Shown here in pieces: positions 1 to 5,509 of a stretch of 56,812 bases of DNA (the first letter of the stretch is position 1; each line of letters begins with the position of its first letter). The notes under the pieces are model-generated. The model was given only the letters and a program-made list of their open reading frames with translations, was not told the DNA's origin and did not search any database. A program made the position numbers and the translations under genes. The stretch is from a bacterium (GTDB lineage: Bacteria > Zhuqueibacterota > Zhuqueibacteria > Zhuqueibacterales > Zhuqueibacteraceae): positions 1 through 56,812 of the forward strand of contig JBIOXB010000092.1 in the NCBI GenBank assembly GCA_044869275.1, given 5' to 3'.

Positions 1-15
1 CCAACGGACTCACTA

Positions 16-21
16 TGTCAA
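16..21 (-). promoter_or_regulatory. -35 box TTGACA in the element right end (half of the circle-junction promoter)
   Basis: Plus TGTCAA at 16-21 is a perfect TTGACA on minus, pointing out of the element. Confidence 0.75.
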
Positions 22-40
22 GTTAAAAATCAGCTTTTTT

Positions 41-1270
41 TTAATTTTGGTTTTGATTGGCGATGAGATGTTTGGCCATTTGTGCCAAGAAGAGATTTTC
101 ATCATAACAAGTTCTGTTCTGCCACATGGCGAAGAGAATGCGCAAATGCAAGTTTGCTAAACAGCGCAGGGCGTGGCTGTGGCTTTTACCGCGATTGCGG
201 TGTTTTTGATAGTAAGCCTTCGCCCACGTGGCTTGAGCGAGCGAGCTAAACGCAAGATGCTGCATCACATCGCGATAGAATTTGTTGCAGGCGCGGCGAT
301 AGTAGATGATTTTGAAGTCGTTCCCACTTTTTTCAGTGACCGGGCAGGTTCCGGCTAAACCCTGCAGCTCGCTGACTGCAGCATAGCGGGCGCGATTATC
401 ACCGAAGAGCGCCAGCAAGCGTGCGGCGGTCAGATATGAGGCACCCGGATAGCTGAGAAAAATCTGGCCATCGGGATGCTGAGTTACCAGTTGCTGTAAA
501 CGGGTGGCATAAGTTTCAAGATCGGTTGCTAATGCCAGCAATTGTTTGGCACACAACAACGCTTTGAGCTGTTTGACGCGAATAAGCACGCCGGGAACAG
601 GCAGATGCTTTTGGTGAAGCAACTGATAAATGTTGACGATGGTGTTGTGATTGCGCAAATGATGTTCTTTGAAAAACGCGGCTAATTGTTGTTGCGACAG
701 TTCACGAGCAGAATCAAAATCCGGATACGCCTGCAGAAAGGCCAGGGCATTAGCGCAGGCGACATTCGCGAAAAAGTCGATATACTCCGGATAGTATTCC
801 TTCAACGTCGAACGCAGACTATTACTCAACGCCACTTGCCACGCAGTGGCGTCATGATGCGCTTGTGCCAAAAGACGAATTTCGCGCACGGCGGGCGAGC
901 CAAAGTCCACTGGCCGCCAACAGGCCGTATCCGTGCGCAACACGTCGGCGATGACGAAGGCATCGAAGTCGTCATCGCGCGCGCCACTGGAACGATAGCG
1001 CTTGCGAAAGCTTTTCATGGAACCAGGAAACATCGCCCAGACCGCATAGCCGGAGTCGAGCAGAAAATCCACGACCAACTGATTCGGCGTTTCGATACCG
1101 ATTTTAAAGGCCGCGAGATCTTCCGAGCATTGGCGGAGTTGAGAGCGAAGCTGTTCAAAACCGGCAACATTATTTTTGATGGTGAGCTTTCCTACGATAA
1201 GCGTGCCGTGTTCGTCTAAAATTTTGACGTCATGTTTTTGATCAGCCCAATCAATCCCGACATAGTACAA
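41..1270 (-). CDS. IS110 family transposase/recombinase
   Basis: 409 aa; N-terminal RuvC-like DEDD motifs (GIDWADQKH, GIETP, RDDDFDA); C-terminal domain with GTCPVTEKSG serine motif; GGAG 6 nt before the TTG start. Confidence 0.95.
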   Translation of the reverse strand: MYYVGIDWADQKHDVKILDEHGTLIVGKLTIKNNVAGFEQLRSQLRQCSEDLAAFKIGIETPNQLVVDFLLDSGYAVWAMFPGSMKSFRKRYRSSGARDDDFDAFVIADVLRTDTACWRPVDFGSPAVREIRLLAQAHHDATAWQVALSNSLRSTLKEYYPEYIDFFANVACANALAFLQAYPDFDSARELSQQQLAAFFKEHHLRNHNTIVNIYQLLHQKHLPVPGVLIRVKQLKALLCAKQLLALATDLETYATRLQQLVTQHPDGQIFLSYPGASYLTAARLLALFGDNRARYAAVSELQGLAGTCPVTEKSGNDFKIIYYRRACNKFYRDVMQHLAFSSLAQATWAKAYYQKHRNRGKSHSHALRCLANLHLRILFAMWQNRTCYDENLFLAQMAKHLIANQNQN

Positions 1271-1292
1271 GATAGGCTCCCGGTGATTTAAT

Positions 1293-1448
1293 CTCTGAAA
1301 GAAGGAGAAGCCGACTTAATCCTATATTGGCCCTCGAAGGGCGGCTCACTATGGAAGTTTGCGCTTCTTGTGCGAAACCTTGAGGCACTCCGTTGGTGGT
1401 GGTCGAGCCACGGGATTAAAATGGCCTTCAAAGTTCCGTCCTTCAGAG
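1293..1448 (-). ncRNA. putative bridge RNA (target-binding and donor-binding loops)
   Basis: Terminal stem 1293-1300/1441-1448; two internal loops, each around a 4-bp hairpin with a YUCGA loop (1399-1411, 1330-1342); flanking segments match 1-8 (8/8), 2631-2639 (7/9), 9-17 (9/9) and 2626-2633 (8/8). Confidence 0.8.
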
Positions 1449-1454
1449 CAAGTT

Positions 1455-1871
1455 TCAAGCTTCGTTGTCGTGGCGGAGATGTTGCAGAATGGTTTTAAGA
1501 CTTTGAAAATCTTGCGTTGCGAAACGATGGAACTGGCCGCGTGCAGTTACTGGCACCGGCGCTGGTTCGGGTAAAGACAACACCTGAAAAATGCCATTTT
1601 GATAAGCGATGAACGAACACTCACAGAGATGATTGCGGGCGCGCACATAGTCGTCGACTTCCATTTTGAGAAATTGACAAATGCGCTCGTAATCGTAAAA
1701 ACTCACGCCGTTGCGATCGGCGACGGTGATCAGAAAATAATACAACAGCAATTCTTCTTGCGCGAGCCGATGGAGAAAACCGCGATGCAAGAAGTTGTGA
1801 TCAATCCAGCCGAAGGTGCATTGGCGAATGTTACGAATACGCTCAGGACAAATGGGGCTTGCGCTACGCAT
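1455..1871 (-). CDS. accessory winged-helix protein, replication-initiator-like; hypothetical
   Basis: 138 aa; LLYYFLITVADRNGVSFYDYERICQFLKM..DYVRARNHL..CSFI fits the HTH_36/phage replication-initiator N-terminal pattern by eye. Confidence 0.65.
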   Translation of the reverse strand: MRSASPICPERIRNIRQCTFGWIDHNFLHRGFLHRLAQEELLLYYFLITVADRNGVSFYDYERICQFLKMEVDDYVRARNHLCECSFIAYQNGIFQVLSLPEPAPVPVTARGQFHRFATQDFQSLKTILQHLRHDNEA

Positions 1872-1956
1872 CGTGCGTGCTCCGATCAGAAGGATGCAAG
1901 TGATGACCTTGGTCGTGACAGCCTCAAGATAAGAACAAAACGTGCGTCAAATCAAT

Positions 1957-2142
1957 CGCGTCCATTTTTACAATCACGCCGCAGCTGCGCCCGGAAACGC
2001 GTTATCGCCTTGAAAAACTTGAAGTGCGACCAACAACGCGTCCATTTTTACAATCTTGGCGGAGGCCTCCAGTGAACAGGGTGTCAACAAATAAGTGCCT
2101 GATTTGACAGGGTGATAGGAGAACGCGTCCATTTTTACAATC
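1957..2142 (+). repeat. three identical 19-bp direct repeats CGCGTCCATTTTTACAATC
   Basis: Copies at 1957-1975, 2037-2055 and 2124-2142; the last two extend to 23 bp identity. Confidence 0.95.
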
Positions 2143-2465
2143 TTTTCGCCAGCCACGGACGTGTTCTGGAGTCGGCGCTGGTAGTTGCGAAGGCGCTGCT
2201 GTTCGCGATTTTTCTGAACGTACTCGGGATGGTGATCGCGATATTCTTTCTGATAGCGGTGCAGGGGGCGCTTACGCCGCCATAGTTTCAGCGCTGTTCT
2301 TTGATGGGCGCGATAGCAGGGGTGCGCCGACAAGTTTTCTCTTTGCCAGAGACGTTTGCGTTCACGTTGACACGCCTCGTCACTGCAAAACTTTTGTTCG
2401 CCTTTAAGGCGCGGGTTCGCTGGCTTTTCCAAGCGGCAGTTTTGGCACCGAATGGTCAGTAGCAT
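1974..2465 (-). CDS. accessory Zn-finger, Arg/Lys-rich hypothetical protein
   Basis: ATG at 2465 after GGAGAG; CQNC...FCSDEAC motif, basic helical region, KIVKMDA twice. Confidence 0.7.
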   Translation of the reverse strand: MLLTIRCQNCRLEKPANPRLKGEQKFCSDEACQRERKRLWQRENLSAHPCYRAHQRTALKLWRRKRPLHRYQKEYRDHHPEYVQKNREQQRLRNYQRRLQNTSVAGEKIVKMDAFSYHPVKSGTYLLTPCSLEASAKIVKMDALLVALQVFQGDNAFPGAAAA

Positions 2466-2617
2466 CGAGGCTCTCTCCAAAATATGAGAGCTCAATCAAA
2501 GCTTCTGATGCTGAAGCGCAAGACCAACCCGAAACAAACGGATCAACAACAAAGCACGGTTTTCAAAGAACAAGAATAACAGACAAGTTAGATTAATTTC
2601 CCTGAATGACCTGGATC

Positions 2618-2626
2618 AAGATAACA
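2618..2626 (-). promoter_or_regulatory. extended -10 box TGnTATCTT in the element left end
   Basis: Plus AAGATAACA is TGTTATCTT on minus; lies exactly 17 nt from TTGACA after end-joining through the TCC core. Confidence 0.65.
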
Positions 2627-2755
2627 TATAGGATCGAAAGACGACCAACGGACTCAAAATAGAATCCGTTAGGCAGTTTTTGTTTTGAAACTACCCCAAA
2701 GGGGTCCTGTTTTCAGCTCGATGAACAATCCCGTGTCGCATTTATCAGATTGAAT

Positions 2756-3019
2756 ATGCACGAATACTCTCTCATCAACGATCTGATGCGCAAGCTGGGG
2801 ATCATTGCCAGCATGCATCACACCCAGAAAATTCTCGGGGTAAAGATCAAGCTGGGCGCGTGGGCACACATTTCCCCGGATCATTTGCGCGAGCACTTTG
2901 TGCAGGCCGCGCGCGGCACTGCGGCGGAAAGCGCGCGGCTGGAGATCGAAGTGTTGACTGACACCTTCGATCGCCATGCGCAGGAAATCATTTTGGACAG
3001 CGTCGAAATCGAGGACTAA
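2756..3019 (+). CDS. hypA: hydrogenase maturation nickel metallochaperone HypA (short, Cys-free)
   Basis: MHEYSL N-terminus and EIILDSVEIE C-terminus; directly upstream of hypF. Confidence 0.8.
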   Translation: MHEYSLINDLMRKLGIIASMHHTQKILGVKIKLGAWAHISPDHLREHFVQAARGTAAESARLEIEVLTDTFDRHAQEIILDSVEIED

Positions 3020-3022
3020 GTC

Positions 3023-5509
3023 ATGCCCGCAGCTCTTCTTCACGCACGCCCTGCGGGGAGGCGTGAAGGGCCAATCCTGCGTCTGCGCATTGTAATCCGC
3101 GGCGCCGTGCAGGGCGTGGGATTTCGCCCTTTTGTTCACCGGCTGGCGCGCAGTTTGGGCTTGACGGGCTGGGTTTGCAATTCCACACAGGGCGTTTTCA
3201 TCGAAGTCGAAGGCAGCCAAACTCAACTGGACACGCTGCTGTTGCGCGTGACCACGGAACTGCCGGCGCGCGCATTCATTCAGAGTTTGGAATCATCCTT
3301 TCTCGATCCCCAAGGCTACACTTCTTTCGAGATTCGCGAAAGTCTCCCCGCGGGAGATATCGCGGCGCTCATCCTTCCCGATATTGCCACCTGCTCTGAT
3401 TGTCTCGAAGAAATAATCGATCCGGCCAATCGCCGTTATCAGTATCCCTTCACCAACTGTACGCACTGTGGCCCGCGCTTCAGCATCATCACCGCCCTGC
3501 CCTATGACCGTTGCCACACCACGATGAGAGATTTCGTGATGTGCGCATCATGCCGGGCGGAATACGGCGATCCCGATGATCGCCGCTTCCACGCGCAGCC
3601 CAATGCCTGCCCGGCGTGCGGGCCGCATCTCGAATTGTGGAATCACGAGGGCTTGGTGCTGGCAGCGCAACATGAAGCTTTGCTCGCCGCGGCCGAGGCG
3701 CTTTTGCGAGGGCAGATCGTCGCCATGAAAGGCCTGGGCGGATTTCAGTTGCTGGCCGACGCGCGCAATGAGGAAACGGTGCAGCGACTGCGCCGGCGCA
3801 AACATCGCGAAGAGAAGCCCTTGGCGTTGATGTATCCGAACCTCGACCTGGCGCGTGCGCATTGTGAAATCTCGGATCAGGAAAAACGCCTGCTGCTTTC
3901 GCCCGAATCCCCCGTCATTCTTCTGCCTCGCAAAAAATGTGATTCACGGTCCGCAAGCCGTCATTCAAATTGCGAGATCGCGCCGGCTGTCGCGCCGCAT
4001 AATCCTTATTTTGGTGTCATGCTGCCTTACACACCATTGCATCATCTGCTGATGGCTGAGTTGAGAATTCCGCTCGTGGCCACCAGCGGCAATCTCTCCG
4101 ATGAGCCAATTTGTATAGACGAACGTGAGGCGTTGCCACGGCTTGGCGGCATTGCAGATCTGTTTCTCGTGCACAATCGCCCGATTGCGCGGCATGTGGA
4201 TGACTCCATCGTGCGCCTGATGATGGGGCGCGAGTTGGTGTTGCGGCGAGCGCGCGGCTATGCACCCCTGCCCGTCAATCTGCAACAACCAGTGCCTGTG
4301 ATTTTAGCTGTGGGCGCGCATAAGAAAAATACCATTGCATTCGCCGCCGGCGGCCAAGTCTTTGCCAGCCAGCATATCGGTGATTTGGAAACCGCGCAAG
4401 CTTTCGCGGCTTTTCGCTGCGTGATCGCTGATTTCGAACGGCTTTATGAGATTCGCCCCGTTGCCATCGCCTGCGACCAGCATCCTGAATATCTTTCCAG
4501 CAAGTTTGCGCGGCAGTACGAGAATGCGGGGCCGGCAGGCCGTTTGTCCAGCGCACAGAATGGCGCATCCAAAAAGATGAGGGTTATCGAAATCCAGCAT
4601 CACTTTGCTCATGTGGCCGCATGCATGGCCGAAAACCAGCTCGAAGGGCCGGTGTTGGGGGTCTCATGGGATGGCACCGGCTACGGGCTTGATGGCAGCA
4701 TTTGGGGCGGAGAATTCTTGCGGGCAACGGATACAAGTTTCGAACGCGTGGCGCATGTGCGCACCTTTCGCCTTCCCGGCGGGGAACGAGCCATCAAAGA
4801 ACCGCGCCGTGCCGCGCTCGGCTTGCTCTATGAGCTCTTCGGCGATGCGGTTTTTGCCCATCAGGAATGGGCGCCGGTGCGCGCTTTTTCCGCACCGGAG
4901 CTCGCCGTCATGCGCAAAATGCTCGAGCACAAACTCAATACCCCGCTCACTTCCAGCGCTGGACGGCTTTTCGACGTGATTGCATCTGTGATTGGATTGC
5001 GACAACAAACGAAGTTTGAAGGGCAGGCAGCAATGGAGCTGGAATTTGCATTGGAAGGATGCGAAACGGAAGCAAAATACCCGGTGCAGATTACGAACGG
5101 CCGAAACCGGATTGCGGGTGCGATGACACGCCAGCACGATGCCGAAATGCAAAATCAAAAGCCCGCCACCATCATTGATTGGGCACCCATGGTGCAGCTA
5201 ATTCTGCACGAAGTGCAAGACGAAATTCCGGCCGCGCAGATTTCGGCAAAGTTCCACAATACACTTGTCGAGGCGATCGTGCAAGTGGCGCAATATGCCG
5301 GCGAGGAACGAATCGTGCTGAGCGGTGGTTGTTTTCAGAATAAATATCTGACCGAGCGTGCGATCCGCCGTTTGCGCCAAGAGGGCTTCCGCCCCTACTG
5401 GCACCAACGCTTTCCGCCGAACGACGGCGGGATTGCGCTGGGTCAGGCGATCGCAGCCGCGCGGGGAGAGCAAAAACAAAAAGCAAAAAGCAAAGAGCAA
5501 AGCGCATAG
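3023..5509 (+). CDS. hypF: carbamoyltransferase HypF
   Basis: Acylphosphatase GAVQGVGFRPFV, Zn fingers CTHCGPR and HAQPNACPACGP, QHHFAH, PPNDGGIALGQ. Confidence 0.97.
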   Translation: MPAALLHARPAGRREGPILRLRIVIRGAVQGVGFRPFVHRLARSLGLTGWVCNSTQGVFIEVEGSQTQLDTLLLRVTTELPARAFIQSLESSFLDPQGYTSFEIRESLPAGDIAALILPDIATCSDCLEEIIDPANRRYQYPFTNCTHCGPRFSIITALPYDRCHTTMRDFVMCASCRAEYGDPDDRRFHAQPNACPACGPHLELWNHEGLVLAAQHEALLAAAEALLRGQIVAMKGLGGFQLLADARNEETVQRLRRRKHREEKPLALMYPNLDLARAHCEISDQEKRLLLSPESPVILLPRKKCDSRSASRHSNCEIAPAVAPHNPYFGVMLPYTPLHHLLMAELRIPLVATSGNLSDEPICIDEREALPRLGGIADLFLVHNRPIARHVDDSIVRLMMGRELVLRRARGYAPLPVNLQQPVPVILAVGAHKKNTIAFAAGGQVFASQHIGDLETAQAFAAFRCVIADFERLYEIRPVAIACDQHPEYLSSKFARQYENAGPAGRLSSAQNGASKKMRVIEIQHHFAHVAACMAENQLEGPVLGVSWDGTGYGLDGSIWGGEFLRATDTSFERVAHVRTFRLPGGERAIKEPRRAALGLLYELFGDAVFAHQEWAPVRAFSAPELAVMRKMLEHKLNTPLTSSAGRLFDVIASVIGLRQQTKFEGQAAMELEFALEGCETEAKYPVQITNGRNRIAGAMTRQHDAEMQNQKPATIIDWAPMVQLILHEVQDEIPAAQISAKFHNTLVEAIVQVAQYAGEERIVLSGGCFQNKYLTERAIRRLRQEGFRPYWHQRFPPNDGGIALGQAIAAARGEQKQKAKSKEQSA

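Follow-up and report, generated by a model that had tools for sequence, protein, structure and literature searches.

The window analyzed here is the 56.8-kb start of contig C92 of a bacterial genome of 6.67 Mb in 255 contigs, whose nearest database relatives are metagenome-assembled genomes (MAGs) of candidate division KSB1. The beginning of this stretch (positions ~6–2633, minus strand) very probably constitutes a complete, bridge-RNA–guided insertion sequence (IS) of the IS110 family, IS110 group, with a left end that is expanded by a conserved two-gene accessory cassette. Read from its left end, the element consists of a CC core, a 165-nt non-coding left end, a gene for a Cys4 zinc-finger protein (ZnF), three direct repeats straddling the ZnF stop codon, a gene for a winged helix-turn-helix protein (wHTH) of the HTH_36 type, a 148-nt bridge RNA, the gene of a DEDD/Tnp recombinase, a 33-nt right end, and a second CC core. 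The listing of open reading frames (ORFs) shows three of them on the minus strand of window 1–2700, all co-oriented. An earlier note, made from the letters of this stretch, had described a three-gene unit of 2.6 kb with its left end near 2633, two co-oriented accessory ORFs ahead of the RNA and the recombinase, and a bridge RNA buried ~1.2 kb inside. This layout is borne out: two flanks are found at each end, the targets exist unoccupied, the donor 9-mers mark the same ends, the left flanks of relatives lie upstream of the ZnF gene, both ORFs are as described, and the RNA core (1444→1297) begins 1188 nt from the left-end core.

Ends of the Element and Its Target Sites

As judged from the contig sequences, the unit occupies two or more sites in the genome. 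Window 1–127 recurs without a mismatch at the end of contig C178 and at the start of contig C177, and the contigs diverge immediately left of window base 1. C22:1–47 corresponds to window 2588–2634, after which divergence sets in. Hence, two left and two right contexts exist for the unit. C177 carries genes for a NiFe-hydrogenase large subunit and a maturation protease (read from sequence, without a family search), which makes it the natural neighbor of hypA and hypF, the two genes that are encoded on the plus strand from position 2750 onward. In the Logan assembly of run X1, which may be the source sample, window 1–2635 is found as a single unbranched contig of 2635 bp with a depth of 19.4, and two flank contigs meet each end, one pair with depths of 11.7 and 15.5 and the other pair with depths of 14 and 11.2. 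The unbranched contig and its depth, therefore, indicate that both copies share the whole interior.

In element orientation, the window copy reads ...GTCGTCTTTCGAT-CC-[TATATG ... CATAGTGAGT-CC]-GTTGGTGAAG, and the copy spanning C22 and C178 reads ...GTCGTTTTTTAAT-CC-[...]-GTTGGAGAGC. The rejoined flanks of the C22/C178 copy give TTTTAATCCGTTGGAGAGC..., and exactly that sequence is present unoccupied in the genome, within a repeated intergenic element. The unoccupied paralogous targets read ...TTTTAATCC|GTTGGAGAG... and TTTCGATCCGTTGG, with nothing between the flanks; window 1455–2630, whose presence in an empty site the earlier note had named as counterevidence, is absent from them. A genome search returned five perfect TTTTAATCCGTTGG sites and 21 loose ones, among them TTTCGATCCGTTGG, the variant that is occupied by the window copy.

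By these alignments, both ends can be set to the exact base from the paralogous empty sites, and only CC is present at both junctions. The left-end core lies at 2631–2632 on the minus strand; C22 and the window share their sequence as far as 2634, and the unoccupied targets read ..AATCC|GTTGG... The right-end core lies at 6–7 on the minus strand (GG on the plus strand), and window 1–5 (CCAAC) belongs to the target flank. There is no target duplication beyond the core, since the flanks of each copy, when joined, restore the unoccupied repeat with one CC. The element ends, CCTATATGTTATC... and ...TTGACATAGTGAGTCC, are without terminal inverted repeats by reading, no inverted-repeat search of the ends having been made. 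The paralogous unoccupied targets were used in place of an orthologous empty site: in genomes of the family, DNA matches were limited to hypF and the REP-like (repetitive extragenic palindrome–like) repeat, without an intergenic region that could be aligned. Among sequencing runs, most of the stretch is contained only in Logan contigs of DNA runs from one study, no RNA run being listed; neither a circle junction nor an empty allele of the locus was seen in these contigs, which cannot show absence.

The insertion site is TTTTAAT-CC-GTTGG-like and lies inside the REP-like repeat, which is composed of a CCAACGGA-loop-TCCGTTGG hairpin followed by TCGTTTTT[AG]A and then by TCCGTTGG AGAGTTTTTTGTCTAAAGCTGCTCC. 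Positions 2633–2672 (minus strand), outside the element, hold the left target flank and the hairpin of the targeted repeat (CTAACGGA..TCCGTTGG TCGTCTTTCGA), including a terminator-like hairpin at 2672–2645. The repeat family comprises this stretch and 21 further genome sites, for example on C98, C102, C154, C160, and C223, and 46 CCAACGGA..TCCGTTGG hairpins occur in the genome. Directly downstream of the insertion, the hypA ORF (2750–3019, plus strand) encodes 89 aa that match positions 1 to 67 of the 112 in Pfam HypA; it may lack the C-terminal part of the family.

Bridge RNA and Its Guides

Between the wHTH stop and the recombinase start lie 184 nt that contain a structured RNA with a core of 148 nt (1297–1444, minus strand). 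The RNA was aligned with its counterparts in eight diverged relatives, namely L014 from a KSB1 MAG and L093, L094, and L096–L100 from metagenomes. RNAalifold yields 39 pairs in six helices with two internal loops. Herein, 94.6% of the cells are paired and 17 of the 39 pairs show compensatory changes, as compared with 5.7 ± 1.7 such pairs in shuffles, none of 500 of which reached as high. When the partners are slid by one to three columns, 36–58% of the cells remain paired and only 2–5 compensatory pairs are left.

The two halves of the target-binding loop are located at 1423–1412 (CAUUUUAAUCCC) and 1398–1387 (CACCAACGGAGU), that is, AUUUUAAU-CC and a CACCAAC preceded by GG. The halves of the donor-binding loop follow at 1354–1343 (CCAUAGUGAGCC) and 1329–1318 (CAAUAUAGGAUU). 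The donor loop corresponds to the ends of the 2.6-kb unit. CATAGTGAG occurs in the 56.8-kb window only at 9–17(−), in the right end (8–40, minus strand), and at 1345–1353(−), in the RNA loop and in the same sense, with 0.08 expected by chance. ATCCTATAT occurs only at 2626–2634(−), in the left end, and at 1319–1327(+), antisense in the RNA loop, with 0.06 expected. The non-coding left end (2466–2630, minus strand) places the donor sequence TATAT(G) beside the core, and CCTATAT has one occurrence in the element. The donor loop also co-varies with the right end: GTGAG changes to GTAAG in L097 and L100 and to GTAGT in L099, with the same change in both places.

The target loops vary among the relatives, each matching its own flanks. 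On average, 5.0/8 positions of the left target guide agree with the element's own left flank, versus 2.84/8 in 64 non-self pairs (Mann–Whitney p = 4e-4). For the right target guide, self pairs reach 5.5/7 and the 65 non-self pairs 2.06/7 (p = 3e-6). Neither non-self set includes pairs with identical guides. All left flanks that were scored are situated upstream of ZnF, at a distance of more than 1 kb from the RNA. The left-end motif CCTATATGTTAT is kept in six of the seven elements whose left end is on the contig, and L100 reads CCTATATAAGTA. At both ends, the CC core is invariant in nine elements (window 6–7 and 2631–2632). The base preceding CC differs between the two ends of L100 (G and T); hence, the shared core TCC of the earlier note is one base too long.

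Assignment to the IS110 Group

A structured non-coding RNA with two internal loops beside the recombinase gene, and the matching of its loops to ends and flanks around a CC core shared by the ends and the empty targets, both belong to the definition of the IS110 family. The recombinase itself (41–1270, minus strand; 409 aa, TTG start) combines a DEDD RuvC-like N-terminal domain with a C-terminal Tnp domain, as seen from its matches to family profiles: PF01548 DEDD_Tnp_IS110 over residues 4–161 (2.7e-29), PF02371 Transposase_20 over residues 269–355 (1.6e-8), and NCBIfam NF033542, "IS110 family RNA-guided transposase," with 146.3 bits for a cut-off of 140. Its identity to any IS110 transposase in the plasmid collection is at most 36%. 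In the IS1111 group, the guide RNA lies downstream of the recombinase, in a long right end. Here, the right end measures 33 nt and the RNA is upstream of the recombinase. Canonical compact IS110 elements consist of one protein gene in ~1.0–1.6 kb, with the RNA in a non-coding end. Three co-oriented ORFs in ~2.63 kb and an RNA that begins 1188 nt inside the left-end core depart from this layout. Every defining feature of the IS110 family and IS110 group that was tested is present, the promoter across the joined ends being a prediction from sequence, and only the customary "one gene, compact" description fails. Neither IstA (rve DDE) nor an IstB AAA+ protein is encoded in the 2.6-kb unit, to which this search was confined, which speaks against an IS21 element.

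The Accessory Proteins and the Repeat Array

The ZnF ORF (1974–2465, minus strand; 163 aa, ATG at 2465, with the start set by alignment with relatives) encodes a Cys4 zinc ribbon of the pattern CxxC-16-CxxxxC, a basic helical region, and a small β C terminus. Its AlphaFold2 (AF2) model has a predicted local distance difference test (pLDDT) score of 81.8 and shows the zinc ribbon, four helices, and the small β unit. The protein has no Pfam or NCBIfam match, its model finds only generic helices in the PDB (Foldseek and VIA-align wide; best Z 4.8 over 42 residues), and its matches in the ESM Atlas are unnamed clusters only. Relatives on RefSeq plasmids are annotated as hypothetical. The family is nonetheless broad in number, with 2150 cluster representatives at E ≤ 1e-3 and 1205 at E ≤ 1e-10.

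The wHTH ORF (1455–1871, minus strand; 138 aa) matches Pfam HTH_36 (PF13730) over residues 35–88 with 4.3e-7 and 30.1 bits, above the gathering cut-off of 25. Its AF2 model (pLDDT 85.3) consists of a winged helix and a long C-terminal helix. The best Foldseek matches, at E ~0.02, are MarR-type regulators and plasmid Rep initiators (4pt7 and 5kbj), and the PHROG matches are to replication initiation proteins and weak, with E of 0.012 and 0.044. For the ZnF and wHTH ORFs together, PHROGs and NCBIfam returned nothing or matches with E > 0.01 only.

The three direct repeats (1957–1984, 2037–2064, and 2124–2151, minus strand) measure ~21–28 nt each, are spaced by 80 and 87 nt, and have the minus-sense core GATTGTAAAAATGGACGCG. 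Two copies encode KIVKMDA in the C terminus of ZnF. The third lies across and after the ZnF stop codon, with its core 5 nt past the stop and in another frame. The 21-nt core GATTGTAAAAATGGACGCGTT is near-invariant, including at synonymous positions, at offsets of −162, −75, and +5 in elements with ZnF proteins that are 42–56% identical, among them the IS21-type L015 and L016. Because of the copy out of frame and after the stop and the invariant synonymous positions, the reading of KIVKMDA as a repeat of the protein only was dropped. The conservation most simply acts at the DNA (or RNA) level, and the repeats form a putative binding-site array. More distant elements have a repeat of their own in the corresponding position, in three or four copies, for example L084, L049, and L028 with TGATTGCAAAGATGGAC-like repeats. 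In L097:598–797, TGATATACAAGT occurs four times with spacings of 69, 66, and 50, next to a very divergent ZnF, which suggests that the repeats and the binding protein change together.

Conservation and Distribution of the Cassette

A metagenome scan with the recombinase left 80 loci, eight of them at 52–70% identity and 72 at ≤39%. Of the eight, L095 starts inside the gene and the seven others have at least 1.2 kb upstream. All seven carry the wHTH ORF and six a detectable ZnF; L096 retains only a degraded ZnF remnant, and the ZnF of L097 is very divergent. The proposal of the earlier note that the accessory proteins travel with the element, thus, holds among these relatives, and recombinase copies that end near 1450 and lack the two ORFs, the counterevidence it had named, were not encountered: none of the seven ends near the RNA. 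Of the 72 relatives at ≤39% identity, none carries either gene (0/72), 26 of them with at least 1200 bp upstream.

A second scan, of a genome collection with the ZnF protein, returned 98 relatives, of which 80 loci were kept. Their hosts include KSB1, Thermodesulfobacteriota, Burkholderiales, Ignavibacteriales, Verrucomicrobia, and other groups; within the order of the source genome, a genome search found the protein in three of 28 other genomes. The wHTH gene follows ZnF directly in 60 of the 80 loci. A co-oriented IS110 gene lies downstream in only four (L013, L014, L018, and L019), and Pfam typing of 45 downstream ORFs gave mostly IstA (rve + Mu-transpos_C_2) with IstB, so the co-occurrence survey suggested by the earlier note places the pair mostly with IS21-type elements. 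For example, L084:3786–7191 is a 3406-bp IS21-type element with ZnF, wHTH, IstA, and IstB that is present in nine identical copies in one Desulfobacterales genome. In some cassette elements, a ParB-like protein replaces or follows the wHTH. The Burkholderiales loci show a large serine recombinase with RepB/ParB genes, L068 shows three tyrosine recombinases, and L044 shows TrfA.

The cassette is also found upstream of the recombinase in a second IS110 clade (L010/L013, L018, and L019), the recombinase of which is 22% identical to that of the window. L013, L018, and L019 have their own conserved RNA between the wHTH and the recombinase, and the RNA loop of L019 matches the flanks at 8/10 and 6/7 positions by reading of the sequences. 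In a ZnF tree, from which duplicate sequences and ZnF matches covering <90 profile positions were excluded, all 10 IS110-linked rows fall into one well-supported clade of 14 rows, which also includes two IS21-linked rows; the two IS110 recombinase clades are intermixed within it, with weak support. Since the pair is conserved over deep divergence and recurs in the second IS110 clade and in IS21, ZnF and wHTH are regarded as accessory genes as opposed to random cargo. From the loci compared, the pair with its three direct repeats is a portable cassette across transposon families.

Several of these loci show peculiarities of their own. At L019:~640–700, a 19-nt stretch containing the end sequence (ACTCGTATACTAAAACTCC) occurs twice in tandem ahead of the left end; this could be a duplicated end or a target-derived repeat. 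L055–L060, all from one Desulfobacteraceae genome, are six copies of a cassette-bearing IS21 with a shortened IstA (258 aa, rve only), downstream of which two or three tyrosine recombinases are encoded; apparently, a recombinase-trio element inserted into an IS21 element and then spread with it. In L068 and L074, three tyrosine recombinases come immediately after ZnF and wHTH and IstA is missing, the downstream ORFs of L074 being typed only by their similarity to the L068 and L055 recombinases. The ZnF proteins of these two loci form a well-supported pair of their own in the tree. In L044:4462–6094, a TrfA-family plasmid replication initiator (Pfam 3.1e-17) is encoded ~700 nt after the ZnF gene. 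L021:3803–4534 is an IS110-like fragment on the minus strand, opposite to and ~3 kb downstream of an IS21-type cassette element, and probably an unrelated neighboring insertion.

Putative Junction Promoter and Proposed Life Cycle

The right end contains an outward-facing −35-like TTGACA at 16–21, which is kept in nine of nine elements, and the left end contains a −10-like TATCTT at 2618–2623. When joined, the two ends read TTGACA, TAGTGAGTCCTATATGT (17 nt), TATCTT. Both hexamers (TTGACA and TATCTT/TATATT) and their distance of 17 nt recur in each of the seven elements with both ends on the contig, including L100 despite its differing left end.

By analogy with IS621, the recombinase would excise the unit as a circle, the junction of which would read ...TTGACATAGTGAGT-CC-TATATGTTATCTT... 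Herein, the joining of right and left end would create a σ70-type promoter, TTGACA-N17-TATCTT. Transcription from this junction promoter would run through ZnF, wHTH, bridge RNA, and recombinase, one after the other. Because ZnF and wHTH would come first, the bridge RNA would have to be processed out of the long transcript or come from an unrecognized internal promoter. In the nine-element alignment, no conserved promoter-like block lies ahead of the RNA; since neither such a block nor an internal minus-strand promoter was found, we prefer processing from a long transcript. The mature RNA would then bridge the circle junction and a new REP-like target.

The role of the accessory proteins can be proposed only tentatively. 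It is a realistic possibility that the three repeats serve as binding sites for the wHTH protein, perhaps jointly with the ZnF protein, and that the level of wHTH, RNA, and recombinase is thereby set once the junction promoter fires. The pair would, hence, be a transposition-control module and not cargo of benefit to the host.

Alternative Explanations

Several observations weigh against the reading of the unit as one RNA-guided element with a long transcript. The single-sequence fold of the RNA is no stabler than shuffles (z = −0.88; 33 of 200 shuffles at least as stable), which is why covariation was used for the fold. Window 1–3200 has no Rfam match at E ≤ 1, and Rfam 15 may hold no model for this type of bridge RNA. 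The p-values of the guide–flank comparison overstate the case since the elements are related and were treated as independent. The left guide of L096 is one position out of register in the alignment, and the left flank of the window copy matches the left target guide at only 5/8 positions, compared with 7/8 for the other copy. The interior was assembled only once, and the presence of three genes in both copies is deduced from the unbranched contig and its depth. The remnant in L096 and the divergence in L097 indicate that the ZnF gene can decay. As to transcription, a simple scan found no minus-strand σ70-like site inside the element, and the host phylum may also use other promoter types; weak minus-strand terminator-like hairpins at 2517–2501 and 1722–1706 would be an obstacle to a single long transcript.

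One alternative is a nested or composite origin, in which a standard IS110 of ~1.45 kb ends near 1450 beside the remnant of another element, for example an IS21-type left part that owned ZnF and wHTH, and in which the repeated 2.6 kb is a segmental duplication. The predominance of IS21 among the cassette loci, with wHTH after ZnF in 60/80, IstA/IstB downstream in most, and IS110 in only 4/80, fits such an origin, as do the two IS21-linked rows that share the ZnF-tree clade with all IS110-linked ones. However, the donor loop matches 2626–2634 and nothing near 1450, CCTATAT being present once in the element, and the target loops of seven diverged relatives match flanks upstream of ZnF. Comparison with the unoccupied targets further shows that the whole unit was inserted cleanly at a single CC, the unit contains no IstA/IstB and no second set of ends, and the architecture is kept across 52–70% recombinase identity. 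Hence, this explanation is highly improbable. A past capture of the cassette from an IS21 element is compatible with the reading as one complete IS110 element, the present unit moving as one. Alternatively, the two genes could be ordinary interchangeable cargo that was picked up by imprecise recombination ("progressive additions") and plays no role in the life cycle of the element. Many cargo-bearing IS110 loci with flexible end recognition are described in a recent preprint (10.64898/2026.08.14.744561), and the degraded ZnF of L096 would be in line with dispensable cargo. Yet the pair keeps its order and its position between left end and RNA in all close relatives and in the 22%-identical second clade, is likewise fixed at the left ends of IS21 elements, and is found beside serine and tyrosine recombinases. 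In addition, the repeat array is conserved at the nucleotide level, including the copy outside the reading frame, and neither protein matches a metabolic, resistance, or defense family in Pfam, NCBIfam, or PHROGs. We consider ordinary cargo unlikely.

A third explanation accepts a function of the cassette and places it in the maintenance of the excised form: the wHTH would act as a Rep-like initiator or a centromere-binding protein on three iteron-like repeats, enabling the persistence or partitioning of circles or junction intermediates in several transposon families. The HTH_36 fold with its weak PHROG matches to replication initiation proteins (E 0.012 and 0.044), the Foldseek matches to the plasmid Rep initiators 4pt7 and 5kbj (E ~0.02, among MarR-type regulators), and the direct repeats just upstream of the wHTH gene point in this direction, and elsewhere the second gene is ParB-like or the neighbors are RepB/ParB or TrfA. 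All of these protein matches, however, are weak and generic for winged helices. Classical plasmid iterons are spaced by ~22 nt, and the 59–87 nt seen here are far wider. The cassette, moreover, is without a helicase loader, primase, or ParA-type NTPase, and no extrachromosomal contig or joint was seen in the Logan contigs, which cannot show absence. A maintenance module is, hence, distinctly unlikely, and the complete IS110 element with an accessory cassette that may control transposition is preferred.

Novelty and Significance

The earlier note had considered the element a compound, possibly undescribed subfamily. The compound nature stands, in that an accessory cassette is conserved across the recombinase clade; "undescribed" has to be tempered because cargo as such is not new, cargo-bearing IS110 elements being already described (10.64898/2026.08.14.744561). 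Three aspects seem to be new: across whole clades, an accessory cassette is conserved and keeps its place between left end and RNA; this cassette is common to IS110, IS21, and other recombinase elements; and it has a repeat array. No description of the cassette is apparent in the papers returned by full-text searches, as judged mainly by titles and the openings of abstracts, a scope that leaves aside subscription journals and ISfinder entries.

A broader idea is that ZnF, wHTH (or a ParB-like protein), and the triple repeat form a self-contained, horizontally exchangeable "front module" that was recruited separately by mechanistically unrelated transposons, namely IS110, IS21, and elements with tyrosine-recombinase trios or large serine recombinases. 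It would act at the circular or joined-end stage common to all of them, where it would either gate expression from the junction promoter or support the persistence, replication, or partitioning of the excised form. This idea is speculative and has a modest chance of being right. If true, the front module would be an undescribed shared layer of transposon biology, and for IS110 it would mean that bridge RNAs can mature from the 3′ part of an mRNA. The breadth of the ZnF family and the presence of the cassette in at least two deeply diverged IS110 clades, in many IS21 elements, and beside serine and tyrosine recombinases point to an uncharacterized, widely shared accessory function of transposons.

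Bridge-RNA recombinases are under development as genome-writing tools with one protein and one RNA. A natural lineage with two extra proteins and an RNA that lies 1.2 kb past the predicted junction promoter suggests a layer of control or maturation that is absent from the minimal model. The element is, in addition, a clean natural case of target reprogramming since its relatives differ mainly in the target loop, each matching its own insertion site.

Comparison with Known Systems

IS21 elements encode the IstA (rve DDE) transposase and the AAA+ helper IstB. Those that carry the cassette have it at the same place, between left end and transposase gene, co-oriented and with the three repeats included (e.g., L084:3786–7191). 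Unlike them, the window element is without IstA (DDE) and IstB (AAA+) and has a DEDD recombinase and an RNA guide instead. With HTH_36 initiators or regulators of phages and plasmids, it shares a gene for a small winged-helix protein beside an array of ~20-nt direct repeats. Unlike in those systems, the repeats lie far apart and in part within the upstream gene; the protein similarity is weak.

The expanded IS110 loci described by Hu, Xie, Yang and Rubin (bioRxiv, 2026 preprint, 10.64898/2026.08.14.744561) carry cargo and reach up to ~100 kb. Like them, the window element is larger than the 1.0–1.6 kb of the canon, and its ends are set by empty sites and guide–flank matches. The cargo of these loci is variable and adaptive, mostly plasmid-derived (resistance and metal genes), and was acquired by progressive additions. 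In contrast, the window element has a fixed two-gene cassette of DNA-binding type that is conserved across the recombinase clade and common to other transposon families. The main text of the preprint contains none of the terms "zinc," "helix-turn-helix," and "IS21," and its supplements may list such genes.

The closest comparison is that with IS621 and the IS110 group (Durrant et al. 2024, PMC11208160). Both systems have a DEDD + Tnp recombinase and a bridge RNA on the left-end side with target and donor loops. Both share a 2-nt core between donor and target, insert into a REP-like target, and are without terminal inverted repeats. IS621 has a σ70-type promoter that is split between a −35 in the right end and a −10 in the left end, and a corresponding promoter is predicted from sequence for the window element. 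In IS621, the promoter is rebuilt on the circle, the 177-nt RNA starts at this junction promoter, and the right end plus left end span 298 bp. The core differs, being CC here and CT in IS621. The main difference lies between the left-end core and the RNA, where 1188 nt in the window element, unlike in IS621, accommodate two protein genes and the repeat array.

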